From: a virus
Lineage: Duplodnaviria; Caudoviricetes
IMG/VR virus record: IMGVR_UViG_3300037264_002513
Span: 1-61,600 of that record
Strand: one strand, 5' to 3'
Length of the DNA: 61,600 nt
Under the pieces are notes generated by a model that was not told the origin of the DNA, did not search any database, and worked only from the letters and a program-made list of their open reading frames with translations. The position numbers and the translations under genes are program-made. Each line of letters begins with the position of its first letter. Within the stretch, counting starts at the first letter, position 1. Below, piece after piece: positions 10,191 to 28,300 of the stretch.

Positions 10191-10280
10191 CTACCGCATC
10201 CAACGCCAGCACGCCATCGCCAGCAACATAGCCAGCACGGTCGCGAGGATGAGGGCGGCATCCTCCTTGTCATCAGTCAC
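10191..10280 (-). CDS. small membrane peptide (29 aa)
   Basis: MTDDKEDAALILATVLAMLLAMACWRWMR; GTG start overlaps upstream TGA (GTGA). Confidence 0.45.
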   Translation of the reverse strand: MTDDKEDAALILATVLAMLLAMACWRWMR

Positions 10281-10762
10281 GCCGCATCACTCCATACGAC
10301 CGAGAAGCCCTCGGCGCGGGTGACGAAGTAGTGCGGGGGCACCAGCCCAGCGGGGAAGTCCTCGAAGAGCGGCACGCCCCCCGCCGCATAGAAGTTCGCC
10401 GCGAACTGTGAGCAGAACTGCTGGCCGACGAGCGTTACGGGGTCGGGCGTGGCGAAGCTCAGCAACGCCCAGAACGCGTACGGCTGGCCTTTTACCTTCT
10501 GGAAGTAGGCCAGTGCGTCCGACCAGGAGAACCCCGAGGGCGGGCGCAGCGCTATCCCCGGCTTCGGCCAGTCCCACCTGTACCGGTTCACCCCCCGGTC
10601 AGCCCGCGCCGTGAGCGTGCTCACCCCAGGCACCTCCACGACTTCGACGTGGCTCCATCGGTGCCCCGTCCGCAGTGAGATCGCCCAGCCCAGCAGCTCG
10701 AAGGGCCGGTAGACGACGATGTCGCCGGGACGCAGTAGCGCCGGGTCGAGGATGGGGCGCAT
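10277..10762 (-). CDS. permuted papain-like (YiiX/YebB, NlpC/P60-type) amidase/peptidase
   Basis: LRPGDIV...WSHV (His first)...GQPY...FCSQF (Cys second). Confidence 0.75.
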   Translation of the reverse strand: MRPILDPALLRPGDIVVYRPFELLGWAISLRTGHRWSHVEVVEVPGVSTLTARADRGVNRYRWDWPKPGIALRPPSGFSWSDALAYFQKVKGQPYAFWALLSFATPDPVTLVGQQFCSQFAANFYAAGGVPLFEDFPAGLVPPHYFVTRAEGFSVVWSDAA

Positions 10763-10764
10763 GG

Positions 10765-11256
10765 CTACACGCTGCTGAGTACCGCGCCCGCTTGCTGCAT
10801 CTTCGTCTCGATGCGGAGGACGCGCGTTTCGAGGTCGGCGACCCGCGCTTCGAGGTCGCCCGTGGGCGGCGGCAGCGGGTCAGGCGGGGGCGTCGTCGTG
10901 CCGGGGTTGATCGGAGCTTTCCACGGTCGCGCTGGGTCGTTCAGGACGCCCTGCGGCTGCCAGGCCGGCGTGGCGGGTCCGTACCGGTTCTCGTCTTCGT
11001 CCCACCCAGCACCGACGAGACAGTCGAAGTGTTCGAGTGTCACCTTGTGCTGGATGATGTCCGCCGCAACGTACGACCCGTCCGACAGGATGCCATAGCT
11101 GCCGGAGGTTTTCGTCGACAGACCCCACCCCTCGGCGCGGTGTATCCAGGCCGCCTCGTTGCAGATCGCCGCGCACTGGCTGGCGGTTGGCCCGAGATCG
11201 CGGTCGTGGGTGTACTTCTTTCGAACGTCCGCCACCGTCTCCTGAATCGTCGCCAT
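10765..11256 (-). CDS. hypothetical protein in lysis region (globular domain + Pro linker + coiled coil)
   Basis: ATG 11256 with AAGGAG RBS; WGLSTKTSG...ADII...FDCLVGAG; C-terminal DLEARVADLETRV. Confidence 0.65.
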   Translation of the reverse strand: MATIQETVADVRKKYTHDRDLGPTASQCAAICNEAAWIHRAEGWGLSTKTSGSYGILSDGSYVAADIIQHKVTLEHFDCLVGAGWDEDENRYGPATPAWQPQGVLNDPARPWKAPINPGTTTPPPDPLPPPTGDLEARVADLETRVLRIETKMQQAGAVLSSV

Positions 11257-11257
11257 G

Positions 11258-11374
11258 TCACTTCTCCTTCGGCGGACGACCGTTCCACCAGCGCCCGCAC
11301 GTTGCACACTCCCAGCGCCGGAGCGCCGGATCGTACTCGATCTGTGCTGTCTCGCCGCAGTGCGGGCACCTCAT
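11258..11374 (-). CDS. Zn-ribbon microprotein (38 aa)
   Basis: MRCPHCGE...WECATCGRWW; ATG abuts upstream TAG. Confidence 0.55.
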   Translation of the reverse strand: MRCPHCGETAQIEYDPALRRWECATCGRWWNGRPPKEK

Positions 11375-11716
11375 CTACTTCTCGCGGCCGATACAGCGGT
11401 TCCAGGCTTCTTCCGGGTTTGGATTCCTACGCGCGTTGTTGAGGCATTCCGCGAGCACGATGCGGTTCGTTTCCTTCGCGGCGGCTAGGATCTGCGCGTC
11501 CAGCATCTCGTCCCGCTGGTAGTGCTTCACTCCTTCGTCCCGCATCTCTTCTATGAGCTTGGCGTGCGCGTCGAGGCGCGTGATGAGGTGCGTACGGTCG
11601 GACCAGACCATGTAGCCCGCAAGGGACCACGCCGCGCCAACCGCCGCGACGAACCGCATCCATGCCGGCAGCCCGCGCGTGCCGTTCCCGCCGTTCTCGA
11701 TGTCGTTCGCCATCAT
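11375..11716 (-). CDS. holin-like single-TM protein
   Basis: GAGGAG RBS; one hydrophobic helix followed by coiled coil; position after tail genes. Confidence 0.5.
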   Translation of the reverse strand: MMANDIENGGNGTRGLPAWMRFVAAVGAAWSLAGYMVWSDRTHLITRLDAHAKLIEEMRDEGVKHYQRDEMLDAQILAAAKETNRIVLAECLNNARRNPNPEEAWNRCIGREK

Positions 11717-11777
11717 CAGACTCCTCGCCGCCAGCGCCGATCCGGTCGGAGGATCGAAACGAAACATGGGATTCTCG

Positions 11778-13055
11778 TCACCTGGTCGCTGTGATGCCGA
11801 CCGCGTGAGACGGGCTGCTCGAGAGAGTCAGCAAGGGTCGATCGAGCCCAGCCCGACGCGCGAGGCCTTCGAGGCCATCGGGCTGGAGGTTGTCGCTGTA
11901 GGCATACAACAGGAGCGTGCGCCACGGCGCGAGGCAGTGTTCGCGCACCACTGCGGCGCGCTCCGGCGGCAGCTCGAGGAGCCGCCCCGGCATCAACAGT
12001 ACTGTGTCGGGGCTCCACTCGGCCCACGGCACATGTCCGATGTCGCCCGTCATCCACTCCCCGCCAGCGAGTCGGATGATGTCAGGCTCGCGCTCCACAC
12101 CCAGCGTCTCGATGGCGCCGACATCCCGCAGGATGCGGTCGAGGAGCATCCCGTTTCCGGCCCCCAGGTCGACGACGCGAGATTGACCCGGCACGAGGCG
12201 GCCCCGCAGGGCGGCGACAATCGCGCGGTGGGCAGCCCGCATCGGCCCGGGGGCCGAAAACCCGTTCTCCGTCCACCACCTGGCATCCGCCGGTCGGTAC
12301 GCGCCATCGCGGGCCAGCCGGTCAGTGTGCAGGGTGTGGTCAGTGCGCGTCGAGATCCGCATGGCCGGCGTCGAGATCCACGCGATGCCGTGCAGCCGGC
12401 TCCACTCCATCGGCCAGGCCAGCATCTCGACCGCCTCGTCCGTTTCCCACCGATAGCCCAGTCGCCTTGCCGCCTTGAGCGCGTCAGAGGCGAGCGCCTT
12501 CGACATCATGCAGGCGGAATCGCAGGGAAGATGTGGGACGAGGCGGACGCCAGCCCATCGCAACCAGATGTTGATGAGGGGTGGCCCAGACGCGCCGGCT
12601 TCGAAGGTGCTGTCGACTTGGCCCTTGCCCCATGTCTGACAGAACGCCCCGCGACAGCACACGGGGTAGCCCAGGAGTTGCCCGACCTTGCCGTCGTCGC
12701 GCACCGCGAGGGCGTTGAGTAGGGCCCGCGCGTTCTCCGGCGCAGCGACGATGACCCGGTATTGCCAAGGCCCGCCAGGCACGAGCGCGCCCTCGCAGGA
12801 CGTGTAAGGCTGCGCTGACACGGGCACCTGGCGCGGCACCACGGCGAGCCCGTGCCGCACGCCCCACTCCGCCAGCGCCGGGAGCTCGTCGGGCGAGCAG
12901 TGCTGGTACGCCGCCTGGCGCACACCATCCACCACCAGTTGGCGCTCGACCTCGAGCCAGGCGCGCCCCCAATCCTGCCGCACCGCTTCCCACCAGGCGC
13001 GAGACGCCTGGTCGCGATACGCGATGCGCGTGAAGTCAGGCAGCTGTGGGCTCAT
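11778..13055 (-). CDS. Cys-motif (DUF483-like) domain fused to class I SAM-dependent methyltransferase
   Basis: GQLLGYPVCCRGAF...RLVPHLPCDSAC in N-domain; VVDLGAGNG..LGVE in C-domain; ATGA overlap with radical SAM gene. Confidence 0.75.
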   Translation of the reverse strand: MSPQLPDFTRIAYRDQASRAWWEAVRQDWGRAWLEVERQLVVDGVRQAAYQHCSPDELPALAEWGVRHGLAVVPRQVPVSAQPYTSCEGALVPGGPWQYRVIVAAPENARALLNALAVRDDGKVGQLLGYPVCCRGAFCQTWGKGQVDSTFEAGASGPPLINIWLRWAGVRLVPHLPCDSACMMSKALASDALKAARRLGYRWETDEAVEMLAWPMEWSRLHGIAWISTPAMRISTRTDHTLHTDRLARDGAYRPADARWWTENGFSAPGPMRAAHRAIVAALRGRLVPGQSRVVDLGAGNGMLLDRILRDVGAIETLGVEREPDIIRLAGGEWMTGDIGHVPWAEWSPDTVLLMPGRLLELPPERAAVVREHCLAPWRTLLLYAYSDNLQPDGLEGLARRAGLDRPLLTLSSSPSHAVGITATR

Positions 13056-14308
13056 CGGCCGGAATCTCCATGACTGTCACCGTGCGGCGAGTCCCCGTGC
13101 CCAGAGTCCCCGTGGCGCGGACGGGTGTGGTCGGTGTGATCGCCGTGGCCGTCGCCGTGGCCGCCATCCCGCGGTGCCCGTCGTGTGCCGCAGCTCGAGC
13201 CCAGCACCGCGTCTGATAGGCGGGGCGTGTCGCCGCGCGCCCACGCTTCGTGCATGTACCGTTCGTAGAGCGCCCGGTGCGGATGCTGAGTCACCGGCAC
13301 GATGCCGGCGCGGCGGAGCCGCCGCTCGCCCTCCGCGTAGAGGTGTTTCCACACCGCGCAGTACGCGTCTTTGTTGCGCCAGTCACCGTCGATGGCCCCG
13401 CCAGGGCACGCCCCGGTGCAACAGATCCAGTAGGGGCAGCCTTGGCAGCCGCCGTGATCTTGCGGGGTGACTTCCAGCGCGAGCTGCCGCTCGTAGGAGT
13501 GGCCGTCGGCGGGGGTCCACGGTCCACCCGTGAGGACGCGTCCGCACATCGAGGGTTCGCCGTCAGGCTCGATGCCGTTGCAGCTGGGCGTATTCCATGG
13601 GTCACAAGACCGATGGTGGCACAGCACATGATCGTCTTGACCCTGCAGGACGCGCAGCACATCGCTGAAGATCGACAGCGTGAGGTCGGGGCTCTCGTCC
13701 TGTAGGGCCCAGAGCGCGTCAAGCACCGACATCAGATCCGAGTCTGGCAAGACAAGCTCAGGGGGGCCGTGCCGCTCAAGTAGGTGCGGGTTGATATGTC
13801 GGATGCCGCGATGGCGGAGGCCACGAACCCACTCGAGGAACCGCGCCACGCGCTCGCTGGTCCCCACGTTCGCCGCAGAGAGCGTGATGATGAACGAGGG
13901 CACCACGCCAGCCTCAAGGAGCGCATCGATCGCCGCCTCGGTCTTTGCCGTCTGCTGCACGCCACATCGGGCGGCGTTGAGGTCGCCAGGGCCGTCGATG
14001 CTGACACCTACCCCGACGCAGTACCGCTGGAAGAGCACGATGTGCGCGGGCGTGATCAAGGTGCCGTTGGTCTGGATGCCGGAGTGCCCGAACTTCTGGT
14101 GACCGTACGCGAAGAACTCCTCGAGCTCAGCCAGCGACGAGAGCAACGGCTCGCCGCCAAACAGATGGAAGCTCCCGCCCAACCGGTCGATCTGCCGGAA
14201 CATCGCGGCCTTGTCGAGCGGGATGCGCTCCCGGCGGTCGTGCTGTTCATAGCAGTACGCGCAGGCGAGGTTACATCGATGCCCGACGAGTTTGATCTCG
14301 ACTGTCAT
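13052..14308 (-). CDS. radical SAM/SPASM-domain peptide/protein maturase with HGD-repeat C-terminal tail
   Basis: CNLACAYC (CxxxCxxC), FGGEPLL, IQTNGTLI, VSIDG; SPASM C..GIEPDGEPSMC and CQGCPYWICCTGAC (Cx2Cx5Cx3C)...YC. Confidence 0.92.
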   Translation of the reverse strand: MTVEIKLVGHRCNLACAYCYEQHDRRERIPLDKAAMFRQIDRLGGSFHLFGGEPLLSSLAELEEFFAYGHQKFGHSGIQTNGTLITPAHIVLFQRYCVGVGVSIDGPGDLNAARCGVQQTAKTEAAIDALLEAGVVPSFIITLSAANVGTSERVARFLEWVRGLRHRGIRHINPHLLERHGPPELVLPDSDLMSVLDALWALQDESPDLTLSIFSDVLRVLQGQDDHVLCHHRSCDPWNTPSCNGIEPDGEPSMCGRVLTGGPWTPADGHSYERQLALEVTPQDHGGCQGCPYWICCTGACPGGAIDGDWRNKDAYCAVWKHLYAEGERRLRRAGIVPVTQHPHRALYERYMHEAWARGDTPRLSDAVLGSSCGTRRAPRDGGHGDGHGDHTDHTRPRHGDSGHGDSPHGDSHGDSGR

Positions 14309-15544
14309 CTACGCTCCTATCAGGCTGGGGTTCGCTACGGCCTCGGCATCGGCGTGGTCGATGTCGGCGTGATCCGTGTCAGCGTGCGTATTCGCGTGGT
14401 CGGCATCGGAGTGGGCAGAGTCGGTGTGGGGCACAAGGTCGCCGTGCGCGTCAGAGTGGGTGTTCTGATGGTCGATATCTCCATGCGCTTCGTCCTGGTA
14501 CAGCTGGTCTTGGTGCAGCGTATCTGCGTGGGTGTTCGAATGCGCGTCGGTGTGCACGTTCAGGTGGTCGCTGTCGAGGTGCTCCTGGTCCACATGGGTC
14601 ACGTCCCCGTGCGTGTTCTGGTGCAGCGTATCAGTGTGGGTGTTGAGGTGCGGCCAGTTTTCGTGGGATACGTCGTCGTGATCAGTGTAGGTGTCGGACC
14701 AGTCATCATGGGTGTTCAGGTGGTCGCTGTCGAGGTGGCCGACGCCCTGGTTGGTATGCTCGTCCTGGTGACCGGAGTCCTCATGGGAGTCCGTCCAGTC
14801 GGTGTAGTCCGCGTAGTTCCCATGGAGGACATCCTCGTGGATGTTGGTGTGCCCATCGAGGTGATCGGTGTGGTCCGTATAGAGCTTCCCCCCGCCCAGA
14901 TCGATGTAGCCCACGTTCGCCCAGTCTCCGTACGTGTCCTGATGCTCAAACACCGGAGGCGTGTCGGTGTGCGTGTTCGTATGGGTGTCGGTGTGGTCGC
15001 GGTCAGCGTGGGGGACATTGGTGTGCACCGCATCCGTCCACGCGCTATACGTGTCAGCGTGGAGGACGTTGGCATGGCTCTGGTCCTGGTGCTGCGTGTC
15101 GACGTGTTCGGCATCCGTGTGGCTGGCATCACTATGGGCGTCGCTGTAGATGTCTCCATGTTCGATGTCAGCGTGCGCGACGTTTCCATGGGTATTCTCA
15201 TGGACGTTATCTTGATGGTCGACGTTGCCGTGCGCCACATCCTGGTGACCCCAGAACTCCTCGTGGTCGCTCTCCGCCAGCCAGTGCAGCTGCGCGCCCT
15301 CGATCCAGAGGGATCCCGCCGCGCCCGCTGGGGTGCCCAGCGAGGGGCCGTAGGCTCTGTATTCGTTTGAGGCGCTCTCGTTGATCCAGTGGAGGTAGTC
15401 GCCCTCGATCCAGAGGCTCCCCGGGGCCGCCGTCGCGACCGCCGCAGCGACCCATTCCCCAGCCAGTCGCCACTCGATGCGGGAGGCGTCGATGTAGTGG
15501 AGGTTGTTCCCCTCCACCCAAAGGGAGCCGGGGCGTTTCGCCAC
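14309..15544 (-). CDS. H/Y/W-x-D/N repeat protein; putative radical-SAM substrate and virion fibre
   Basis: Three N-terminal GSLW(V/I)EGxxLH(Y/W) repeats, then ~65 aromatic-X-Asp/Asn tripeptides; start and stop abut both neighbours with 0-bp gaps. Confidence 0.85.
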   Translation of the reverse strand: MAKRPGSLWVEGNNLHYIDASRIEWRLAGEWVAAAVATAAPGSLWIEGDYLHWINESASNEYRAYGPSLGTPAGAAGSLWIEGAQLHWLAESDHEEFWGHQDVAHGNVDHQDNVHENTHGNVAHADIEHGDIYSDAHSDASHTDAEHVDTQHQDQSHANVLHADTYSAWTDAVHTNVPHADRDHTDTHTNTHTDTPPVFEHQDTYGDWANVGYIDLGGGKLYTDHTDHLDGHTNIHEDVLHGNYADYTDWTDSHEDSGHQDEHTNQGVGHLDSDHLNTHDDWSDTYTDHDDVSHENWPHLNTHTDTLHQNTHGDVTHVDQEHLDSDHLNVHTDAHSNTHADTLHQDQLYQDEAHGDIDHQNTHSDAHGDLVPHTDSAHSDADHANTHADTDHADIDHADAEAVANPSLIGA

Positions 15545-16366
15545 TTAGATCTCCGCGTACTTGTCCGCACCAACAGGAATCACAAGGCGGTTGCCCGCGT
15601 TGGACAGCCGCACGATCGGCGACCGCGCAAACTGCGTCGCCGACGTGGCCATCAGCATGTCTCCCGCCGCTTGCCCGACCAACGCCAGGCCCCCGGCGCG
15701 CACGGCCGCGATCTCGACGTTCGTCGGCTGCACCACGAGGCTCGAACTCAAGTCCGCGACGCCCACCAGCCGCCGATACGTGGGCGCGGTCGACGTGATG
15801 GCCCCCACCGTCGCGGAGACATAATACGCCACCCCGGGACTCAGTCCAACAAACCCCGTGACACGCCCTTGGAGCCGAACGGCCCCCGTCGCTGCAGAGG
15901 CGATAGCCGTCGGCGCCAGGCCCACCATCCCCGCCTCGCTCGAGCTCGCCAGCACATCCGCATCGGCACGGTACCACCGCCCCGCCGTCGTGCCGCCCGC
16001 CCCCGCACTGAGATAGACGACATCGCGCGCGGCGATGGCCTCACCGGCAATTCCCTCGATGTCCACGTTCGCGTCCCACGAGGCCGGCGCGATCAGGTTG
16101 TCTTGCGTCCGCAACACCACATCGTTGGCGTTCGCGAAGATGAGCTTGTAGCTGGTCGGGAGCCAGAACATGACGCACCGGCCGGCGGCGTCGCAGATCA
16201 CGGGGTTCGGGTTCGGGATCGTCCCCGCCGCATCTGAGTACGTCGGCAACGCGTTGGCGGGCCAGGTGCCGCCCGCCGACAGCGTGTAGATACGCGCCCC
16301 AGCGATCGTGTTGCCGTTGCTGTCAAGCGCCGTGAACCACGGCGAGGGGGCGACCATGAGCTGCAT
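15545..16366 (-). CDS. tail spike/fibre adaptor with P22 tailspike head-binding-like N-terminal domain
   Basis: DSNGNTIAGARIYT..AG...TYSD..GT.PNPNPV.CDAAGR...YKLI...RTQDN; no catalytic spike domain follows. Confidence 0.7.
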   Translation of the reverse strand: MQLMVAPSPWFTALDSNGNTIAGARIYTLSAGGTWPANALPTYSDAAGTIPNPNPVICDAAGRCVMFWLPTSYKLIFANANDVVLRTQDNLIAPASWDANVDIEGIAGEAIAARDVVYLSAGAGGTTAGRWYRADADVLASSSEAGMVGLAPTAIASAATGAVRLQGRVTGFVGLSPGVAYYVSATVGAITSTAPTYRRLVGVADLSSSLVVQPTNVEIAAVRAGGLALVGQAAGDMLMATSATQFARSPIVRLSNAGNRLVIPVGADKYAEI

Positions 16367-19300
16367 CAGCGTCCTCCTTCAGCTGCCGGCTCCGCAGCCC
16401 GCGTAAGCCGGGGTTTCGTCACCCACCCGTGCATCGTCGAGGGCACCTTCACCAGCAACCCCGGGCTGACCGGCGGGTGCCGCTCGGGCAACGACGCCTC
16501 GCCGTTGGCGTAGCGAGCCATGTCGATCACGGCATCGTACAGGCGGTCGTAGATCTCGCGCTTCTCAGCAGGCGTGAGGTCAAACCGCTGGCGCACGAGG
16601 CGGATCTGCTGGGTCACGAGCCGAATCTGAGCATCCGCCCGACGCAGCCCGCTCAATTCCTGCGCGGCCTTGGCGTTCTTGGTGAGAAGGGCTTGTGCCT
16701 TGGGAATCTGGCCCTCCCGCACATACCGATTGACCATGCGCGAGTACTGCTCGAGCGACGCCTTCCGCTGCCGGAACCGTTCCAGGCTGGTCGCCTGTCC
16801 CGTCGCCTTCTGCCCGACAAACGCGCCGATGCCAGGCACGTCACGGAGCCCGCGCGAGGCCGACGGCGGCGCCCAGCCCGCCTTTTCCTCCGCCTTCGAG
16901 ACGAGGCTGGAGATGAATTGGCCGGTCGCCGAGGTGTAGCCGTAGATGATGTGGTCGAGCATCGCCGGCGCCAACCCGATGGCCGGTCCAACCTGCTTCG
17001 AGAATGTCGAGGTCCACTGTGAGTACTGCTGCTCCAGCGGGAGGTCGAGGTCGAACGGGCTGACAATCGGCCGCTTGCGGAACGTGTCGTAGTTCGCCGC
17101 CGCTTCCAGCACCGGCAAGACGGCTGTTGGAGCCAGCGCCAGGAACGCCTTGAGGAGGTCCGCGTCGCCGACGCCGGCAAACGGCAACCGCTGGATCGCT
17201 TCGGGGTCGTTGTCGACCGCCCAATCCAGGTAGGTTTCGAGCACGTTGCCGATATCGCCCACATCGAAGGGTCGAGGGATGCGGACCCACCCGCCTCGCC
17301 CATTCGGGATGTGCCAGAAGGCCGCGCGCTCCCATCCCGCCAGCTCGCGGTATTCGGGATCTTCGCGGTTCAGGAGCCACAACAACAGCCCCGGCAGGAG
17401 CCCATAGAGGAACGCCTTGAAGGCGTAGGCCGCGCGCTTGTCGGGGTCGCCCAACTCGGTGGCGATGCGCGTCCACCCGCCGATCCTCGCGCCGAGGAAG
17501 GCTTCGTAGCGGTTGTAGCGCCGCACGACAGACCCCATCTTGGCGAAGTCCTGCGTGGACTCACGCGCGGTAAACGCGGCGCGGGCTTCCCGCTCGGCCC
17601 CACCGATGCCCTGCGCGGCCAGCTTCTTCTCGGTTTCGCGGAAAGCCTGGAGGCGCGTGGCGTTGTCGCTCAGCTCGGCCAGGGCCCGCAGCCCCTCGAA
17701 CGGATTGAACACGGTCTTGTCGAGGGTGCGGCGGAGGCGGCCGTGCTGGAACTTCTTGATTTCGTTCTTCGCGTAGTCCCGGTCGACCGCAACGATGCTC
17801 GCCTGGGCCGCCTTTGCGGCACGGAACCGCTGCCAGGACTCATCGTTCTTGATGATCAGGCCCGCCGCCGCCAGCGTCTTCAGGAACGAGTGATGATAGG
17901 CGGCCTTCGTTTTGGCGTCGATGGTGTCGCGGATCGGGTTCCGCATCGCGAAGGACAGCGTTGAGGTCGCCGCGCGGCGCAGCAACGATGCCGCGCCCAC
18001 CGCGAACTTGGTGATCCAGTTCCGCGGCTGCTGCGGCTGCGCGTTGACGAGCAGCTCCCAGATCGCGTCATCGTGGACTTCGTACCATTCCCGCTTGCCG
18101 TCACGCAGGACCGTCACAATACGGGCGTCGCCCTGCGCGATGATAGCCGGCGTGAACACCGTGACCAGCGCATCGAACTCGATGTCGTTGGGAATCTCCT
18201 CGCCGACCGTAACCCCGTTCGCCGCGAGCACCGCGAGGATGGCCGACCGGACCCGATCCAGGTTGAACCGCGTCGCCACCTGTTTCATGCTGACCCGCTC
18301 GAGGAAGCGCGCGCCGCCCTCGTCGTGGATCAGGTCCACCAGTTTCAGCCTGGCGGTGTTTTCCTCGACCGTCCGCACGAAGGTAAACGTGTTCTTGATG
18401 GAGGTCACGATCGGGTCGACGATCCGGCGGGCGCTACCCGTGCGGGCCTTGATGGCCTGCGGCGTGTTCTGCTTCTTCGTCCCAGGCCCCCGGAAGGCCG
18501 CGTCGGCCGCGTCCATGACCCGCTCCCACGGCACGTAGCGGGTATTGCGCGCCCGCATCGCTTCCGCCGAGTCACGCGACAGGTAGTCGTGCTCCACCGC
18601 CCACTGGAGCAGCGTGTCCCAGTAGGCCGTCACCCGCTCGGCCGCGGTGACGAATCGCTCCGGCACCTCGGCCGCCATTGCAGCCTCGACCGTCGATGGT
18701 CGGATCCCCGTCTCGAGGCCCTGTTCGTGGTACTCCTGCGCACGGCGCGCCACGAGATAGGCCACGAACGGTCTGTAGTCCTTTCGGTTGAGCACCTCCC
18801 TGACGGCCGTGAGGAACCCCGGCCCCATGATGGTGCCGTCCGCGCGCCGAATATGGTCTTCGAGAAAGGTTTGCGCCTCGCCCGAAGTGCCGGCCAACGT
18901 GCGGAACGCCACGTAGGCGCTGCTGCCGTAGTCCTTGACCGGCAACCCCTTCTCCATCGCCTGTTCCACGCGCAGGATCGGCAGGTTGTCGTCGTTCAGC
19001 GCGTCGTTGAGCTTCTGGAGGGCATCCCTGGGGTCTGACGTGGTGCCCAGCACCCAGTCGCGGAAGCGGCTCCACCGGCCAGGCTCGCCGTTCCAGTCGA
19101 TGCGCTCCTCGAGCTCCTGTTCCGGCGTCATCGCCAGAAGGCCCTGAATCTGGGCCTGCTGCTCGCGGAAGAAGGCCCCGAGGGCCTTGTCCGAGTTGAG
19201 ATACGCCTCGAACAGGGCGGTAAACGCCGGGGCCTGCGTCGCCGCGGCCTCGGGCTCGGTGAACCAGAGGCGGAGGTATTCGGCCGCGCCTTCCTTCCGC

Positions 19301-22300
19301 TTGTACTGGCGGTCTTTCAGCTTGCTCGGCGGCGTCGTCACCTCGCCGAGGGCTTCGAGCTCGACGGCCACCGCCCGGTTGGCGCCCGCGGCGCGCGCCG
19401 GCCGGATCTGCATCACGGCCTTGTCGACGTGGTGTCCCAGCTCGTGCAGGATGACCTGGAGATCCTTCGACACCTTCGTACGAATCGCCCACACATCCGG
19501 CTTGTAGATGCCGCCGGCGCGCTGCTGGAACCGCCGCACGCTCATGGGCACGTCGGCAAAGAACTTCTGGAACGCGGCCAGGATCTCGTCCCGGTTCATC
19601 TGGGGCCCCGCCGGCCCGGGGGCGGAGGCACGCGTCGGCAACGCTGACCGGGCTGGCAAGGGCATCATGTGGCGCCGCGGGGCCCCGCCGCCCATCGGCA
19701 TCGCGTCCTCGTCGTCCTCGTCGCTCGGGGGTTCCTCGGCTGCTGGCTCCCGACCCGGCGTCTCAGGCGCTTCGTCCTGCCCAACCGACACGCGCAGCCG
19801 GCGCACCTCAGCCTCCAGGGCCTCGAGCTCCGCATCTTGGCCGAACTGCTTACCGAGCACTTCGAGGTGGCCCTTACGGTCCTCAGCCCACTGCGCCAGG
19901 CTCTTGCGGGAGAACCCGCCGAGCTTCTCCAGGGCCTCTCGCTTGGTGTGCGCGTCGAGGCTCCGGCGGTAGTCGGGCGGCACCTTCTCATCCCACTCGG
20001 GCAGCGAGGCGAACGGCAGCACCGTGCGGAGCGGCCCCCGGCGCTTCTCGCCGATCGTCGTGTCGTTCGAGAGGAACAGCTGCGGCGCCTGGATCTGAAT
20101 CCGGTCGGTGGTCGGTTCGCCGTTGACGACCTTGAACTCGTCGCGGCCGTAGGCCTGGATGACCAGCACATAGGGGCCGACGCGGCCCACGACCACGGGA
20201 TCGCTTCGATAGCTGGCGTAGCCGCTCTGCAGGATCGCCTCGAGCTTGGCCTGGAACGCCTTGCGCGCGTCCGTATCCTTCAGGTCGAAGGTCAGCGGCG
20301 TGTCCAGTTCCTCTAGGTAGAACCGTGACGGGTTGTGCGTGATGATGGCCGTCGGCTTCTTGGCCCACTCGTCCAGCACCGCGAGGTCCGCGTCGTTCTG
20401 CGCGATGCGCTCCTCGTCGCGCTTGGCCTCGGCGTCGCCGGAGTCGATCGCCCGACGGGCCTTGCGCTGCCGCTGCAGAAAGTTGACCCGCCGGCCGCGA
20501 AGCGACCTCAGCTCCCGGTCCTTGTGGACGAGCGTGAGGGCGTCGGGATTGCCGCTCGCCAGCGCCGCGGCCGTCTTCTGATCCATCTGCGCCGGGTCGA
20601 GGTCTTCCATGCTGTCGAGCTCGCCGCGATAGAACTTCGTCAGAAAGTCCTGTTTGGTGGCCAGAAGGCCCCAGCGGTATTCCTCGAACGAGCCCTTCGT
20701 GACGTACCGGACGATCTCGACCTCCTTGTTGGTGTTGCCCTGCCGGATGCCCCGCGCTTCCTGCTGCTCCAGCCAGTCTGGCCGCCAGGGCGCGTCGAGC
20801 TCATGCACCGCCACCACGCGGGTCTGCACGTTCATGCCCGTGCCCATCTTGGCGCCCGTGCCGATGAGCACCCGGACGCGACCTTCGCGCACCGCCCGGA
20901 AGAGCCGGATCTTGTCGCCTGGCTCGGGCGCCTGGTGAATGAACGCGATTTCCTGGGGCTTGATGCCCTTGGCGATGAGCTTCCGTTTCAGATCCTTGTA
21001 GAGGTCACGGCCGGTTTCGAGCGAGGCGACGGCGTCGAGCACGGTCTGTTCCTCTTCCTCGTCCGTCACGATCTCGCCCTGATCCTCGTCGACTACCATC
21101 TTGTCGGCGTCGTCGAACGCCTCGACTCTTTGCCCTCCGAGGTTGAGCGGTTCCACCGTGCGCGGAGCCCCGGCGTTGAGGAAGACGAGCTGCGTGCCCA
21201 GGTCGTCCTGGGACGCCCGGTAGATGTCCGCGATCTTGTCAGCCGCCGCCACCAGCCGGCCCTGCGGGTTCTCCGGCGCCTCCGGGTCAATGAGGCGCAT
21301 GTCGATCGCTTCGAGGCTGGCCTGCGTGTAGATCTTGAGGTGGTTGTCGTCCTTCGGGTCGACCTTCCCACCCTTCAGGGCCTCCAGGCGATCCCGAATC
21401 TCGGCCATGAACTCTTCGTGTCCGGGCGGCGGGGGCGTGGTGATGACCGTCGGGCGGCCGTTCTTGATCGCCGGCAGCGTCACCACGGGCGTCCCGTCGG
21501 GGTTCTTCGCCTCAATGAGTTGCTGCGTCGTGAAGACATCCGCGAAGCGCCAGAAGAGGCCCGTGAGCTCGCGCAGGTTCACCCAGTACCGCAACCGTGT
21601 CCGCTCCTTGTAGCCGCCCCCCGGCTTCGGCTCGCTCTCCGGCGCGGCCACCGCGAAGGCATTGGCCCAGGCGTCGAACCCGGCCATCCCGACATCAGCG
21701 AGCTGCGGTTGCGCGAGATAGCGGAAGACGGTGTAGACCTCGCTCATGGTGTTCGTGACCGGCGTGCCCGTCATGAACACGAGATTACGACTCTTCGACT
21801 GCTCGTTCAGGTAGCGGGCCTTCAAGAACATATCCATCGACCGTGCGGCGTCGCTGCCCTTGAGCCCGACGATGTCGTTCTTCCCGGTCGAGAAGTAGAG
21901 GTTCTTGAACATGTGGGCTTCGTCGACAATCAGCCCATCCACGCCGAGCTCCTCGAAGGTGACCGGCGAGCTCTTCTTCTGCTGGTCGAGGCGCTTCCGC
22001 AGCCGCGCCCGCAGATTCAGGATGGCGCGGACGATGTCCTTCACGCTGGCCGTCGTGCCACGCCCGAACAGCCCTTTCTTCCCAGCCTCCTTCGCGTCGA
22101 CCTGATCCTTGAAGTCCTCCCGCGACACGTCCGCCTGTTCGGCGCCGTTGGCGATGAGTTCGTCTTCCTGCTGCTGAATGAACGCCTTGAGCGTCGCCAG
22201 CTTGACGGAAATCCGCAGGTACTGTGACTGCGCCATCACGATCGCGTCCCAGTCCTGGTTGGTGATACGGGCGATGAGCTCCTGGCGCCGGTCTTTCTGG

Positions 22301-25300
22301 AAATCGCTCTCATCGGGCACCAGCACGCGGGCGCCGGGGTAGACGTACTGGAAGTCTGCCCGCCACTGTTCAACCAGGTGGTTCGGGACCACGATCATCG
22401 GCTTGCGGGCGAGCCCGAGGCGCTTCCATTCTCCGGCAATCGCGATGCCGGCGAACGTCTTGCCGGCGCCCACCGCGTGGGCGATCATCGTGTTTCCGCC
22501 CTGGAGCGTGCGCCAGACCACGTTCTTCTGCCACGGGTGCCACCGCAGCTCGGGGTTGGCCCCGACGATCAGTATCCGCGAGCCGTCGAACTTCCTGGGC
22601 ACCTCGCGATTCAGCAGGGCGTTGTAGATGTTCGTCAGCGTCTCGGCGGCCTTGTCGTTGTTCTTCCACCACAAGGCCCACTGTTCGCGGAGCTGCTTCA
22701 AGGACTCCCGGTACTGGTCGGTTTTCTCCTGGCTGAAGATCTTGATCGTCTCGCCATCGACCTTTTCCTCGTTGTAGATGCGCGGGAGCCTGTTGTTCAA
22801 CGCCTCGTAGGCCCACTCGACGAAGTTCGTCCCTTCGGGCATGAACTCATGCGTCCCCCCGAAGCCGTCGACGTGGAACTCCGTCCGATGCTCGTTGTTC
22901 GAGAGCTTCACGGTGAGGCTGCTCGTGTTTCCCACGGCACGCAAGAAGGACTCATAGATGTCGTCGGGCACCCACGTCGCCCCGAACGGCGCCTCGAAGG
23001 TTTCCGGCGTCTTCGGCGCCGGCTGGACCTTCTCTAGGGCCTCGACGTTCGGCTTGAACGCGGGGTCGAGCTCGGCCGCGAACTGCGCCTGCTCCAGCTT
23101 CGTAACCACGTCCCCGGAGAGATATTCCTCGCGCGTGACCCAGACCTTCGTTTTCGGCTCGAAGAAGAGCTCGCCGGTGAGGCCCTTGGTCACGGCATCG
23201 GGCGTGCTCTCGAGCAAGCCGGCCATGTATTCGAGGTCGACGTGCCCCTTCCAGGCCAGGCTTTGCACGAGGGCGTCTTGTGGCGAGGCGGCCTTCGTGG
23301 GCTCCTCGACCTTGTCCACGACGCGCTTCGAGAAGATGTCGGCGAGGCCGATGAAGTCGACGACGCGCTTCTTCCGCCCGCTGGCGTCCTTCTCGCTGTA
23401 GGTTTCCGTGACCTCCAGCGTGATGATGCGCGACGCGTTCGGGTCGGCCTTGATCGCCCGCTTGTTCTCGGTCAGCGCGATACGCCCGAACCCGGCCACG
23501 AACGCCTCGTAGGTCTTGCGGAGCTCGGCCTGCGCGGCCTTCAGCGTGGCATCGTCCTGTCCGGTGGTCATCGCGTCGAGGACGACCTGGTAGGCGTCGC
23601 GCAGCGGGATGAACGCCTTGACGCGCGCAGCGGTCTTGCCGGTCAGCGGCACCCGCTCGGTCGTCCCGTTGTTGTAGACGGCGATGTGCTTACCGTCCAT
23701 GACGTAGGAGCCGTTCTTCGAGTCGAGCGGAACGTCCTTCGCGAACTTCCGCCGGTCAGGCCGCAGCGTGGCCTTGTAGGTGTTCTTCGGGAAGCTGTCC
23801 ACGACGCGCGCCAGGTCGTCAGGCGTCATCACCCCGGTGACGTTGTAGCCGGTCGCGCGGTAGTTCATCTTCCCGCTGCGGTCCTCCTCGCCAAGGATGT
23901 TCTCAGGATGCGCGACGAAGTACTCGTTCGTGTGGATGAACTCGTCGCGGCCTTTGTCCTCGTTCCACTCCTTACCCAGATCCTCGCGCTTGACCGACTC
24001 GATCCACCCCGGGATGCCCTGCGCGAGCGTGGCGCCAGGCTCCTTCTTCTGGAGCACGATCACGTCCGTCACGACCTCGGTGCCCGCGGTTGTCTTGAAC
24101 GCGGACGAGGGCATCCTGAACGCGCCCAGGAAATGCGCGCGGTCAGCGATGTAGGCTCGTACGGAGTCGTTCTGGCTATCCATCGTGTAGCGCGACGTGA
24201 CGAAGATCACGAGCCCGCCAGGTCGAACGGCGTCAAGAGCCTTGCCGAAGTAGTAGTTGTGAATCGACCGCGTCATCAGCGCGCGCGCGGGCGACACGAA
24301 GGCCGGGTCGAACACCTCAACCTTGCCGAACGGCACGTTCGAGATCACGAAGTCGTAGAACTCGTCGGGCACGCGGGCCTCTTCCAGGGGGCTGGCCTGG
24401 ACGATGGCGCCCTGGTAGAGCTGCTGCGCGATGGCCGCGGCGACCGGCTCCTTGTCGACGCCGAAGAGGACCGTCCGCGGGTGTTCCACGATGGCGGGCG
24501 GCATGGTCCCGAAGAAGTGGCCGGTCCCGATGGCCGGCTCGAGGATGCGCCCGCCCTTGAACCCCAACCGCTCGGCCAGGCTCCACAGCGCCCGCGGAAT
24601 GTCGGAGAACGAGTAGTGCGCGTTGATGACCGATTCGCCGAGATCCTTGAGCTCCGCTGGCGTGAGCAGCCGTTCGAGCTCTTCGCGGGCCTTGCCGAGC
24701 CGGGGGTCTTTCCCGGCAAGGTCGGCCGCCTTCTTCGAGGCGACGACCGGGGCGAGGTTGGTGTGCCCCCAGCCGATGTACTTGGCGAGGACGGCCTGCT
24801 CGTCGGCGGTCGCGGGGCGCTTCTGCGCGTCGAGTTGCTTGAGCAACCGGAGCGCCGCCATGTTGTTTTCGAGTTTGCCGATCCAGCTTCCGCCGGTGGT
24901 CAGCTCTTCGACATCGCTGATACGGAAGTGCTTGGGCCGCTCGCCGCGCGCGTGGGCGGTGACCACGTTCGGATCGTCGACATCGTCGGCGGTGTCCACA
25001 TCGCTGGCATCACCAGCTCGCTCACCTGGGCTGGGCTGGCGCCCTCCCCCAACATCAGCGCCTCCTCGCCGAGGGCCGCGTCGACCGCCTCGCGGACGGC
25101 CTGCTCCACCTTCAGCTTGCCCTCCGGCTGCTGGTGCAGCTTCCGCAGCGGCGGGCTGTTCGCCAGCCACACCTTCAGCACCTTCAGCTCGAGGCCCTCC
25201 AGGGGGTTGACCGGTGACACCGGCTTCGACGGCTGGCCTTCCTCGTACACCCGCTCCCGTGGTAGACGCTGCATCGGTGCCTTCTTCCTGTACTGTCGGC

Positions 25301-28300
25301 TCCGCCGGCAGGGTTGTCAAGACCTGGTGCGTGGACACCTCCTCGGCCTCGGGGTGGAGCAGGCTCCAGCCGGCGTCGAGGTAGATGGCCATCCGTTCCA
25401 CGGTCGGTCGGCCCAGCTGGTCGATCGCCTGCCGAACGGCCTCCCCGAACTCGTTGATGCCCTTGCGCGCGTAGACGCCCAGCAATTGCACGGCGAGCCC
25501 CGCCATCTCGGGGTCGATGCCGACGTTGAGCTGGTTCATCTTGGCGCGGATCTTCGCCAGGATGGCGGCTTCCTCGGCGTCGAGGGCGGCCTTGGTCGCC
25601 TCGTACTTCGTCGGAGCGGCCTTCGTCTGAGCCGTGGTCGGCGGCTTGAACTCGGCCGGCTTGGCGGGTTCCTCCGCCTTCTCGAAGTCGATGCGCTGCT
25701 GCCCCGCGGCCTCGAGGGCGTCCCGGCGCAGCCTGGTGATGGCTCGGTCGAGCTCGGTGCTCGGCTCCAGCTCGACGCCGAGGTGACCCTCGAGGAGCGC
25801 CGAGGCGAAGCTGAGCTCGTCCTGCGTCATCACGTCCACCGCGGCGTGGTAGGCGCGGACGTACGAGTGCCCGAGCACGTCGATGATGATCTGGCCCTCG
25901 GCCTCAAGCAGCTCGCGGCCCTTCTGGCTGGTCGCGTCGGCGTTCTTGTCCCAGGACTCGATGTGCGTCAGGAGGTCGTGCAGGGCCTCATTGGTGGCGC
26001 TGTCGTAGACGAGCGTGTTCTCGCGCCAGCCGAGCTCGGCCTCCATGGAAGCGAGGTCGTCCTGCTCGTACTTGGTCAGCCCAACATTCGTCTGCGAGTT
26101 CAAGAGTCCCTTGATGTCATCCTCGAGGCCCTTGTCGCTCGTCTCGAAGTGCTCGAAGTTCGGTCGGGTGGAGGCGGGGGAGGGGACGTGCTTGGCCACC
26201 GGGGCCTTGGACTCTTCCTCTTCCCGGCTTACCGTCGGTTCGATGCGCTCGAGGCCCGAGAGGTTTGTCCACTTCCCGTAGGTCTTCGTCGAGTCGAGCA
26301 TGAGCCGGGCCGCTGGCGGGTCTTCGGTGCGGATCTGCGTGATGATGCCGCTTCCCTCGAACCCGGTGACATGGTCCCCGACCTTGAACCCGCCGACCTC
26401 CGTAACCTCCGTCTTCACGCCCTCGCGGGTCGGGATAATCGTCGCCTTCGTGAAGGTGACCGCTGGCGCCTCGGCCTTCGTTTCCTGGCGCGTAACGTCG
26501 CGGGCATCCACCCCCATCGCCAGCCCGTCGGCGTCCCTCAGTGTGAGCAGGTCGCCCCTTCTAGCCGGCTTACCAACCGTGTAGGGTTTCCCGTTGTAGG
26601 TGACGGCATCGCCAGGCTCGAACTGGTCAGCCGCAGCCCCCTTGCTGATGATCTGGTCGATGGCAGGGCCGCGTTCTACCGGCGCCGTCTCCGTCTTCCT
26701 CGGCCGCTGCACGCCCGTCACGTTGTAGACCGTGTCCTCCACGCCAGGGCCAGGCTTGTGATACCAGACCTTCGACGGCGGGCTCCAGCGCCAGCCGGCC
26801 TTCTTGAGGCCGTCGAGGACGTTCGGCGCCGGCTTGCCAGGGAACTTCAGCTCGTAGTTCCCGGCCACCGTGCGGCGGACGCCGGCCTTCGGCCCCTCGT
26901 ACCAGGTGCCGTCCGAGGCCAACATGCCGGTCGACGTGGGCGGAGGGGCGGAAGAAGGAGCCGAGGGGGCTACTTCTTCCGTGACAGACGCCTCCGCGTT
27001 TGTGAGCTGGCCCGGGAGCAGCTCATAGAGCGCCTGTCCACCTGGACTGTTTCTCGTGTGTACGTCGCGGACGCGGACGCGGACCCACTTCCCGGCGACA
27101 CCCACGACCTCGCCAGTGCGAGTGTAGGAGGCTTCGCCAGGCCGCTGGTCAATCACCGACTTGAACGTAACCCGCGTGCCAACTGCGAACTCAGCAGGCT
27201 TGACCGGCGCTGGCTCTTCGGCCTCGGCCACCTCCGCTGGCGCTTCGCCACCGACCACGCGGATCTGATGCGGTTTTGCCCGCATCGTTTCTCGATACGA
27301 TCTGGCCCCTGGCGGCCACATGGGCTGCATCACCAGCGACGGGTGCTGGACCTTCGTGCGGCCCTCGGCGTCGGTGTCCTCGAGCACGTCGGTTTTCTTC
27401 CACTCGCCGTCGAAGTCGAGGACTTCAACCTCCTGGCCCTTCGTGAATCTCCCGGGTTCGCCGGCAGGAGTGGTCGGCTCGGCTACTTCTTCTGCGGCGG
27501 GGCCTTCGGCTTGACGTGCTGCGGGAGGTGCTTCGGGAGCTCGTACTCCCGGTCCCACCGCGCCGCGATCTTCGGGTGCTTCGCGTGCATCAGGCGGAGC
27601 TGCGCTAGGCTCTTGTACGGCATCGGGTTTCTCCTGCGGGACGACATCGGGCGGCAGCAGCCCCGCCTCCTGCATCCGGCGCTTCATCTCGGCCTTGGCG
27701 GCGGCCTTCTCCTCGGCGGTCGGGGGCTCGGCCGCCGGTGGGCCAGGCGTAGCAGCGACGGGCGGAGCGACCGCCGCGGAGGAGGGCGGCGGGGGTGGGC
27801 TCGGCGGCGCGGCCGCGGGGCCACGCGGAGGCTGCTGCTGGCGGCCAGCGGGCGGAACGTGCAGCTCCCGGCCGACCATCGGGACCGGCTCGGGACCGGG
27901 CTCTCGCGGGGGCCGTCCAGACGTGGCGAGCTCGGCAAGCCCTCTGACGGTCCCAGGAACGGCGAACGCCGCGGCCTCCACCACAAGCTGCCGGCCGAAC
28001 TCGCGCATCGCCTGCGCCCGCGCAGACTCCCCATGGACCGTTTCTGCCGTCGGCTCGCCCGTGACCATGCGAAGCATCGCCGGCTGCGGCTGACCTGGCT
28101 CGCGCAGGTAGGGCTGGGCGGCGCGCATCACCTCGCCGACCCGCTCCTCGAACATCTCGCCGATGATGCCGTTCCAACCCGACTTCGTCCGCACCTGGTC
28201 GAAGAAGTCGCGGACGCCCCGATCCGGGTGCAGCTGCAGCCAGCGCGAGAGCACGGCCTCCTTGAGCGCCACGATGCGGTTGGCGACCGGGAGTTTGGCG

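Follow-up and report, generated by a model that had tools for sequence, protein, structure and literature searches.

A radical SAM/SPASM enzyme of phages carries a C-terminal array of the H-x-D motif found in its presumed tail-fiber substrates

Results

The locus and the enzyme core

The window analyzed here, the whole 61,600-nucleotide stretch of DNA, is a phage genome containing terminase, portal and scaffold genes. Its minus strand encodes a 418-residue radical SAM/SPASM enzyme (13052–14308), which lies between a 425-residue partner (11778–13055, minus strand) and a 411-residue H-x-D/N repeat protein (14309–15544, minus strand), the presumed substrate. Directly upstream of the repeat protein, a 273-residue protein (15545–16366, minus strand) may, as judged by gene order, be a tail-fiber or structural component. 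Its sole match was weak (phrog_26190, 5.9e-4, function unknown), and the equivalent upstream genes in Thermus phage Cumys are annotated as baseplate and tail collar fiber.

The catalytic core of the enzyme (13223–14308, minus strand; residues 1–362) is supported by PF04055, phrog_1802, the cysteine pattern, an AF2 model and Foldseek. The core matched PF04055 (Radical_SAM) at 1.6e-13, with 51.6 bits against a cut-off of 29.5, and phrog_1802 at 2.9e-26. Radical_SAM and Fer4_12 were the only Pfam families reported for the enzyme at E ≤ 0.01. Besides the Radical_SAM domain, the enzyme has the CxxxCxxC motif of the radical SAM superfamily, which starts at residue 12, directly at the beginning of the protein and without an N-terminal recognition domain; alignments A1 and A2 both retain its cysteines (C12, C16 and C19) in ≥90% of rows. 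No RRE or PqqD family was reported for the enzyme in the Pfam search.

SPASM enzymes are marked by a C-terminal cysteine-rich domain with a Cx2Cx5Cx3C pattern, further cysteines and two auxiliary clusters. Eight C-terminal cysteines of the window enzyme (C230, C235, C255, C288, C291, C297, C301 and C317) are invariant in both A1 and A2, and we take C288-x2-C291-x5-C297-x3-C301 to fit the SPASM pattern. The AF2 model of the core (pLDDT ~95) found its best Foldseek matches in the SPASM enzymes ChlB (9gm3, 4e-14) and anSMEcpe (4k39, 1.5e-13) and aligned with both across the whole core. The invariant cysteines together with this whole-core fold match place the enzyme in the SPASM class, and the sequence-only reading, in which the tail follows a SPASM domain, was right in substance, even though the Pfam SPASM model gave no report for the enzyme at E ≤ 0.01.

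The H-x-D tail

Behind the core lie a variable linker (13166–13222, minus strand; residues 363–381), which has no conserved columns in A1 or A2, and an HGD/HTD tail (13055–13165, minus strand; residues 382–418), which is kept in homologs. Translation of the ORF confirmed seven H-x-D motifs at the C terminus, starting at residues 384, 388, 391, 399, 404, 409 and 413. Six are HGD and one is HTD; an additional HTR is not a motif. All seven HxD motifs of the enzyme fall inside the tail. The interval 13052–13159 on the minus strand, to which the array had originally been assigned, corresponds to the stop codon plus residues 384–418 and holds all seven motifs, while the GG with which that description began lies outside it, at 13160–13165.

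When the 37 residues of the tail were shuffled, 1.47 HxD motifs arose on average, and seven were reached in none of 200,000 shuffles; a chance origin of the motif count is excluded. Of the ORFs in all six frames of the window, the upstream protein and the tail alone reach a density of at least four H-x-[D/N] in any stretch of 40 amino acids. Along the linker, the AF2 pLDDT falls from 94 to 55 to 43; it stays below 50 throughout the tail, whose position is unplaced in the full-enzyme model. The tail is predicted by this model to be intrinsically disordered. A complex prediction of the core (residues 1–362; A2) with residues 363–418, SAM and three 4Fe-4S clusters, run without controls, scored 0.03 and 0.02, far from the required 0.32. 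Neither model speaks for or against docking of the tail on the core.

Presumed substrates and the DUF483-methyltransferase partner

Residues ~100–400 of the repeat protein hold 53 H-x-[D/N] motifs. It has 57 histidines, with Asp at the +2 position in 36 cases and Asn in 17; the other residues at this position are Ile, Leu or Glu, never Ser. Residues 1–98 comprise three 'SLWIEG..LH.I' repeats. No Pfam, NCBIfam or PHROG family was found for the protein. Most viral loci share its N-terminal domain, which is also present in loci L020 and L025 and whose Atlas matches were hypothetical viral clusters only, with scores ≤0.79. Cumys_13 matches the repeat protein with an E value of 3.7e-23.

In 47 of 51 loci from viruses and 11 of 26 from bacteria, the enzyme gene has an H-x-D/N-rich ORF as its neighbor, which strongly supports the earlier proposal that the motif links the two genes. 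The scaffolds that bear the arrays differ. Phage arrays sit on tail-fiber proteins of several hundred to 1200 amino acids, with up to 112 motifs, and the scaffolds include a J-like central tail fiber (phrog_5616, 6e-57), a collagen-like fiber and Laminin_G_3 virion proteins; bacterial arrays are peptides of 70–90 amino acids encoded beside PatG-like peptidase and MacB exporter genes. The H-x-D/N repeats are thus carried by tail-fiber proteins in phages and by small peptides in RiPP-like clusters in bacteria. We infer that the upstream 411-residue protein is the substrate of the radical SAM enzyme and is probably modified by it.

The conserved cassette consists of the H-x-D/N repeat protein, the radical SAM enzyme and a DUF483(-methyltransferase) protein. 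In the window, the partner is DUF483-like over residues 1–260 and SAM-methyltransferase-like over residues ~260–425. Its Pfam matches, MetW and DUF483, were weak, and its Atlas neighbors have DUF483 and methyltransferase domains; look-up of the DUF483 part alone returned hypothetical viral clusters only (scores ≤0.79). The partner gene, kept beside the enzyme gene in most loci, overlaps the enzyme stop codon with its start codon (ATGA). The DUF483 domain was modeled confidently by AF2 (pLDDT 92.6), and Foldseek returned nothing for the model at E ≤ 0.001. With VIA-align, the top match was 2guk (Z 7.0), itself without a known function, and the next was the methyltransferase NleE (Z 4.7); both are too weak to name a function. 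Some bacteria have DUF483 fused to the C terminus of the enzyme, and enzyme fusions to peptide beta-hydroxylase domains were also seen. Tail and DUF483 fusion occurred together in none of 104 representatives, 44 of which are tailed and 10 fused. No DUF483 fusion had more than three motifs after residue 360, and the 28 longer forms never had more than eight.

Separate H-x-D/N proteins occur together with 25 of the 26 tailed enzymes examined in context. Thermus phage phiLo has a tailed enzyme and three ORFs of 58–104 motifs located 5–10 kb from the enzyme gene, and the tail as sole substrate in phiLo was accordingly rejected. These three ORFs were absent from the protein-search matches. Because the tailed enzymes examined in context, bar one, also have separate presumed substrates, the tail supplements the substrate and does not replace it.

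Distribution and signature of the tail

The enzyme family comprises ~250 clusters at 50% identity. Two or more motifs after the core were present in 55 of 119 homologs among the matches listed and in 44 of 104 representatives (50% identity, complete core end). Counted by origin, the proportion was 27 of 35 for enzyme ORFs of viral contigs versus 1 of 21 for those of bacterial genomes; the tail belongs largely to phage enzymes. It is present in the cultured Thermus phages Cumys and phiLo, and it is missing from seven viral enzyme ORFs and from nearly all bacterial enzymes. The sequence-only reading had named absence of the tail from close homologs as an outcome that would count against it; the nearest relative of the window enzyme (63% identity) is tailed, as is ~40–46% of the family.

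On a FastTree phylogeny of 173 cores, the tail trait required 16 changes, compared to 57.9 with shuffled labels, and none of 500 shuffles gave a value as low. The tail was lost several times, and at least six changes are forced by starred branches. The starred clade of the window enzyme contains 26 tailed and three tail-less rows. Comparison within clades revealed that the motif-bearing segment is kept while the linker varies, and the tail is kept among enzymes of only 35–45% identity. Through long-tail forms with 22–34 motifs (P0014, P0018, P0021, P0032, P0117 and the enzymes of L082 and L084), the tails grade towards full enzyme–substrate fusions; reduced tails have a single motif (P0008 and P0068) or are degenerate (L015). 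The tail recurs in about four of ten related enzymes and is therefore regarded as a functional part of the enzyme-and-substrate system.

The tails have a signature of their own, consisting of (P)HGD and HGDHTD doublets. The doublet H[GA]DHx[D/N] was found in 64 of 84 tails having at least two motifs. HGDHTD itself occurs 82 times in tails and was not found in the substrates of 25 loci. Gly occupies X2 in 82 of 168 tail motifs versus 105 of 1212 substrate motifs (Fisher odds ratio 10, p 7e-34). At X3, the 581 tail motifs have 567 Asp versus 14 Asn, whereas Asn accounts for 341 of 2345 (15%) in substrates. The modal motif spacing is 3 in tails versus 5 in substrates. HGD makes up 12% of the 2,345 substrate motifs and is a natural substrate motif. 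A recent duplication of the substrate gene as the source of the tail was rejected, as blastn-short of the tail DNA against the substrate gene returned matches of no more than 14 bases. The earlier interpretation thus stands with respect to gene linkage; its suggestion of a fused ancestral precursor, taken as a recent copy, is not supported, given the lack of DNA likeness and a motif composition unlike that of the local substrates. Self-modification, a pseudo-substrate and metal binding, which it also proposed, are candidate roles. It had not noticed the signature specific to tails, their prevalence among phage enzymes or the tail-fiber nature of the presumed substrate.

Comparison with known systems

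The best NCBIfam matches to the enzyme were cyclophane-forming maturases, all far below their cut-offs in bits (AmcB, 63.2 versus 425; YhhB, 45.5 versus 445; GrrM/OscB, 44.8 versus 310; XyeB, 33.6 versus 450), and the scores do not place the enzyme in a triceptide family. Triceptide synthases are described in PMC11499958 as ~370-residue SPASM enzymes without an RRE that act on aromatic-x-x motifs, often repeated; the His motifs documented there are HAA, HNR and HTK, with a link from His-C2 to C-beta. The window enzyme resembles these synthases (ChlB, HaaB, YhhB and HtkB) in its SPASM domain, the lack of an RRE and the repeated aromatic-x-x motifs of its presumed substrates, and ChlB is its best fold match. 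A presumed cognate substrate with aromatic-X-X motifs is also at hand, with 53 H-x-[D/N] in the adjacent protein and conserved adjacency. Unlike in triceptide systems, the presumed substrates of this family string up to 112 H-x-D/N motifs along large tail-fiber proteins, and the part of PMC11499958 consulted does not mention an enzyme-borne motif.

A second parallel is HXS, in which, according to PMC13128918, the radical SAM enzymes HxsB and HxsC together with HxsD mature HxsA, an antiphage effector with His-Xaa-Ser repeats, and a site-specific covalent modification was localized to a motif that contains His. Radical SAM maturation of a protein with H-x-small-polar repeats is the shared element, and HXS, as reported there, has a role in phage–host conflict. 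HXS, however, is a bacterial defense that relies on HxsD and two radical SAM enzymes and whose effector combines five HxS repeats with a peptidoglycan-binding domain, whereas the window cassette has one enzyme, a DUF483-methyltransferase partner, dozens of H-x-D/N and a phage tail-fiber setting. The HxsB and HxsC models were outside the best 25 of 50 NCBIfam matches to the enzyme and therefore had E values above 3e-6, the HxsA family was not found with NCBIfam, and the repeat protein lacks Ser at +2; the window cassette does not belong to HxsABCD.

The same three-gene cassette also makes up the 'rSAM module' described in the Thermus phages Cumys and phiMa. An rSAM enzyme, a DUF483 protein and a third protein lie in the phage structural region in the same order and are homologs of the window proteins, the enzymes being 39.5–40.8% identical to that of the window. 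All 54 histidines of Cumys_13 are in H-x-D/N, and the tail of Cumys_12 has four motifs. A preprint (10.1101/2024.08.14.607894) treats the rSAM, the DUF483 protein and the unknown gene as functionally linked and proposes an unknown DNA modification; the word 'histidine' occurs 0 times in its main text. We judge a DNA-modification role unlikely because of the RiPP-type neighbors in bacteria, the peptide beta-hydroxylase fusions and the fold matches to peptide-modifying enzymes. This evidence points to a module that modifies the tail-fiber protein rather than DNA.

Enzymes with a fused substrate have a precedent in the borosins, OphMA-type N-methyltransferases whose substrate peptide is a C-terminal extension and which exist in fused and split forms in nature. 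The likeness is that the enzyme bears its own substrate-type sequence at the C terminus. Borosins differ in enzyme class and chemistry, and their fused tail is the only precursor, whereas a separate and far larger substrate is nearly always present here, with 25 of 26 tailed enzymes and in phiLo. Periodic His-x-X motifs in a phage fiber are likewise known from the distal tip of the T4 long tail fiber, although the T4 motif is HxH with few sites and, to our knowledge, the T4 fiber has no dedicated modifying enzyme.

Discussion

Our leading explanation, to which we assign a probability of roughly 45%, is that the tail mimics the substrate and, disordered and tethered to the core, acts on the catalytic domain as a cis- or pseudo-substrate. 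The substrates of the family, phage and bacterial, would be the H-x-D/N arrays, and the enzyme would recognize the three-residue motif itself in a leader-independent manner, because scaffolds of many unrelated kinds bear the arrays and the enzyme is without an N-terminal leader-binding domain. The flexible H-G-D array, ~20 residues from the core, could then enter the active site of the same enzyme molecule or of a neighboring one. There, it may serve as a cis-substrate that is itself modified, or as a pseudo-substrate that fills the active site until the multivalent fiber substrate displaces it. By analogy with triceptides, the chemistry at each motif would most likely be a three-residue cross-link between the side chains of His and Asp/Asn, which would then be methylated by the DUF483-methyltransferase partner. 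Several findings weigh against this reading: tail motifs differ sharply from those of the local substrates at X2 and X3, in spacing and in the HGDHTD doublet; seven viral enzymes and nearly all bacterial ones do without a tail; the AF2 model does not place the tail; and the NCBIfam scores are too low for a triceptide family.

The tail could alternatively be a metal-binding or metal-bridged docking module, in which HGD and HGDHTD would chelate a divalent metal through His imidazole and Asp carboxylate. Such a module might dock on a metal-loaded H-x-D fiber array by ion sharing, like a built-in His-tag, or retain iron for the three Fe-S clusters. Near-obligatory Asp at X3, where substrates tolerate Asn, and Gly-rich HGDHTD doublets that put two His and two Asp back to back within six residues are the expected look of a chelating element. 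The tail is also found mainly in phages, whose substrates are large fiber proteins and not short peptides; moreover, the T4 long tail-fiber tip binds iron through HxH motifs, and HypB and UreE deliver metals with His-rich tails. However, metal binding alone does not account for a tail in precisely the H-x-D register of the substrate, relatives in bacteria lack a tail although they have the same three clusters, and we know of no need for such tails in other phage radical SAM enzymes; overall, we consider a metal module a serious but less probable alternative.

We find it improbable that the tail is a recruitment handle, presenting H-x-D to the substrate site of the DUF483-methyltransferase and replacing non-covalently what bacteria achieve by fusion. 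The tail does take the very position of the DUF483 domain in fused bacterial enzymes, tail and fusion never coincide, the fusions have few motifs beyond residue 360, and the ATGA overlap couples the partner gene translationally to that of the enzyme. Many unfused bacterial enzymes nevertheless have neither tail nor fusion, and no clear relative of DUF483 emerged from the fold comparison (best Z, 7.0). That the tail is a neutrally drifting low-complexity leftover without function, derived for instance from an ancient read-through into, or fusion with, a substrate gene, is very improbable: although the single-motif and degenerate tails look decayed and the tail was lost several times, its conservation within clades and at 35–45% enzyme identity, the prevalence of the doublet, the lack of DNA likeness to the substrate gene and a composition distinct from that of substrates argue against it.

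A search of the literature found no paper joining radical SAM enzymes, phage tail fibers and a histidine-rich protein, and none on HxD repeats with radical SAM/SPASM. Nothing related to radical SAM cross-linking of bacteriophage tail fibers was found by title and abstract, and nothing obviously relevant to triceptides in phages among the titles listed. The enzyme-and-substrate system is largely unstudied. As Thermus phage Cumys is cultured, the system is directly testable.

We tentatively suggest that a phage radical SAM enzyme staples tail fibers covalently at dozens to more than 100 H-x-D/N sites and uses its own copy of the motif either to load itself onto its giant repetitive substrate or to gate itself against it. 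If true, this would give a testable function to a cassette that is found in at least 47 viral contigs and that until now was known merely from Thermus phages, as an 'rSAM module' lacking an explanation. By bearing the motif itself, a radical SAM maturase would have a new means of dealing with substrates that are leaderless and highly repetitive. RiPP-type radical chemistry would extend from small secreted peptides to large virion proteins, and the enzymatic, RiPP-style maturation of a virion structural protein would be a phage-side counterpart of the bacterial HXS defense.

Gene cassette and enzyme core

The radical SAM enzyme (418 aa, 13052-14308, minus strand) is encoded by the third of four consecutive minus-strand genes, preceded by those for a 273-aa protein (15545-16366) and the 411-aa repeat protein that is its presumed substrate (14309-15544), and followed by that for a 425-aa DUF483-like partner (11778-13055), which starts with an ATG overlapping the enzyme's TGA. 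In the repeat protein, 53 of the 57 His residues have Asp (36) or Asn (17) at +2, and no Pfam, NCBIfam or PHROG family was matched. The window, with a G+C content of 67%, is a phage genome containing small terminase, portal, scaffold and RecT/exonuclease genes. Between its structural genes and the tail-fibre and radical SAM cassette lies the gene for a 4483-aa DarB-like antirestriction/methyltransferase/helicase protein (16366-29817, minus strand; phrog_10089 at E 0). Downstream of the cassette, small genes at 10277-11767 (minus strand) encode proteins of 130, 38, 180 and 161 aa, the 38-aa one with a zinc-ribbon-like Cys-x2-Cys ... Cys-x2-Cys pattern and the 161-aa one matching phrog_1128 at 1e-14; a lysis or accessory role for this stretch is possible.

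A Radical_SAM domain was detected in the enzyme. At least 90% of aligned rows retain C12, C16 and C19, and eight C-terminal cysteines, invariant in the alignments, match the SPASM pattern. Since CxxxCxxC begins at residue 12, there is no space for an N-terminal peptide-recognition domain. The core was modeled confidently by AF2 (pLDDT about 95), the closest solved structures to the model being the triceptide synthase ChlB (E 4e-14) and anSMEcpe (E 1.5e-13); the enzyme scored below every curated triceptide family cut-off.

A conserved H-x-D tail

The seven H-x-D motifs that the sequence-only reading placed at the enzyme's end were confirmed: 13052-13159 comprises the stop codon and residues 384-418, with six HGD, one HTD and one HTR. 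Shuffling the tail's own residues gave seven HxD in 0 of 200,000 trials (mean 1.47), and a density of at least four H-x-[D/N] per 40 residues was reached nowhere in the window's six frames except in the repeat protein and the enzyme tail. Residues 382-418 are predicted to be disordered in the AF2 model.

The tail also proved to be conserved in homologs, a point singled out for checking by the same reading. Among the best 120 of 1,182 proteins at E ≤ 0.001 (119 non-self), 55 carry at least two H-x-D/N motifs beyond the conserved core and 48 at least three; the closest relative among the matches listed (63% identity) has seven. When 1.84 billion representatives were searched exhaustively, 252 clusters were returned at E ≤ 1e-30, of which 149 non-self were listed and 104 had a complete core end. 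Within these 104, a tail of at least two motifs was found in 44, an H[G/A]DHx[D/N] doublet in 35 and a DUF483 domain fused at the tail's position in 10, while none combined tail and fusion. On an unrooted tree of 173 distinct cores built with FastTree, the least careful of the available tree methods, tail presence shows strong clustering (16 changes versus 57.9 with shuffled labels; 0 of 500 shuffles as low), starred branches still force at least six changes, and 26 of the 29 rows in the window enzyme's clade are tailed. Inside individual clades, conservation is good across the motif-bearing segment but not across the linker (residues 363-381).

Presumed substrates and partners in phages and bacteria

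GTDB genomes and IMG/VR were scanned with the enzyme alignment, and 26 bacterial (L001-L026) and 51 viral (L081-L131) loci were kept as family-level matches; L027-L080 and L132-L157, distant or partial radical SAM matches, were excluded. A separate H-x-D/N-rich ORF was counted if it lay on the same strand, had nine or more motifs and had over 60% of its His within them; 47 of the 51 viral loci and 11 of the 26 bacterial ones contain one. Among bacterial loci, L019 has such an ORF on the opposite strand, and L005 and L018 encode larger H-x-D/N proteins below the 60% rule. The DUF483-type partner is usually directly downstream of the enzyme and was not found by tblastn in eight of the 77 kept loci. 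Tandem pairs of family enzymes occur in three viral loci (L082 5992-9448, L084 5971-9387 and L115 5989-8913), one copy in each with 12-24 motifs and, in L082 and L084, tails on both. Four homologs (P0136, P0144, P0147 and P0148) are split by LAGLIDADG-type intein domains (PF14528, precomputed Pfam).

The phage repeats make up the C-terminal portion of tail-fibre proteins, on scaffolds that include a J-like central fibre (phrog_5616 at 6e-57; Phage-tail_3), a collagen-like fibre and Laminin_G_3 virion proteins. In the cultured Thermus phage Cumys, the repeat-protein homolog follows the baseplate and tail-collar-fibre genes; all 54 His of Cumys_13 are in motifs, and the enzyme Cumys_12 has four at its end. 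The phage phiLo enzyme has nine tail motifs, and 5-10 kb away three adjacent ORFs (L168 8502-14364; 678, 802 and 478 aa) contain 58, 104 and 75 H-x-D/N motifs; their annotation in the region examined goes no further than hypothetical.

Bacterial substrates include 70-90-aa peptides. The RiPP-like cluster of a Bryobacterales locus (L004 3056-11834) encodes an 88-aa H-x-D peptide and a radical SAM-DUF483 fusion, flanked by S8 and PatG-domain peptidase genes and by a MacB/FtsX-type exporter. In longer bacterial forms, enzyme and DUF483 are fused to aKG-HExxH peptide beta-hydroxylase, 2OG-oxygenase or methyltransferase domains. Eight homologs (P0121, P0127 and P0128 of Myxococcota, P0133, P0138, P0139, P0142 and P0143) carry the beta-hydroxylase (TIGR04267, up to 5e-24) or a 2OG-Fe(II) oxygenase, a domain arrangement that suggests further oxidation of the same peptides. 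A Firmicutes locus (L025 4282-5977, partly masked) has repeat ORFs with long H-E-N runs instead of H-x-D.

Tail and substrate motifs differ in make-up

Tail motifs had been described as identical in kind to those of the upstream protein, which holds for the H-x-D register but not for their make-up. Gly occupies the second position in 59% of tail motifs (343/581) versus 12% of substrate motifs (289/2,345, 75 ORFs), and within the same 25 loci in 82/168 versus 105/1,212 (Fisher odds ratio 10, p = 7e-34). Thr (17% versus 27%) and Ser (2% versus 21%) are rarer there in tails, Asp at the third position is more frequent (98% versus 85%), and modal spacing is 3 rather than 5. The HGDHTD doublet occurs 82 times in tails and never in substrates of the 25 loci. 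Tail-coding DNA shares matches of at most 14 bases with the substrate gene. The tail is not a plain copy of the substrate but a specialised element, marked by a signature of its own: (P)HGD and HGDHTD.

Proposed role of the tail

Given arrays on unrelated scaffolds and an enzyme lacking a leader-binding domain, the simplest inference is that the enzyme recognises the three-residue motif itself. On that view the catalytic domain would bind the disordered H-G-D array, held on a tether of about 20 residues, as either a cis-substrate or a pseudo-substrate, a reading to which we assign a probability of roughly 45%. The near-obligatory Asp and doublet architecture would be equally expected of a metal-chelating element, and metal-bridged docking or metal delivery is a weaker candidate. 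Mutual exclusion of tail and DUF483 fusion suggests a recruitment handle for the DUF483 partner, which we consider unlikely; a neutral remnant is less probable still, given the tail's conservation.

The enzyme might form a three-residue His-to-Asp/Asn cross-link on each motif, a purely analogical proposal modeled on the HAA, HNR and HTK cyclophanes (PMC11499958). Searches of the literature for a radical SAM enzyme with H-x-D/N repeats or phage tail fibres returned no report. The closest functional analog in print is HXS defence, whose His-Xaa-Ser repeat effector undergoes maturation by radical SAM enzymes (PMC13128918); the cassette falls outside HXS. The only paper found on the cassette, a Thermus phage preprint, put forward DNA modification (10.1101/2024.08.14.607894). 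The tail-fibre repeats, RiPP-like bacterial loci and fusions to peptide beta-hydroxylase, 2OG-oxygenase and methyltransferase domains instead point to a cassette that modifies a protein or peptide.
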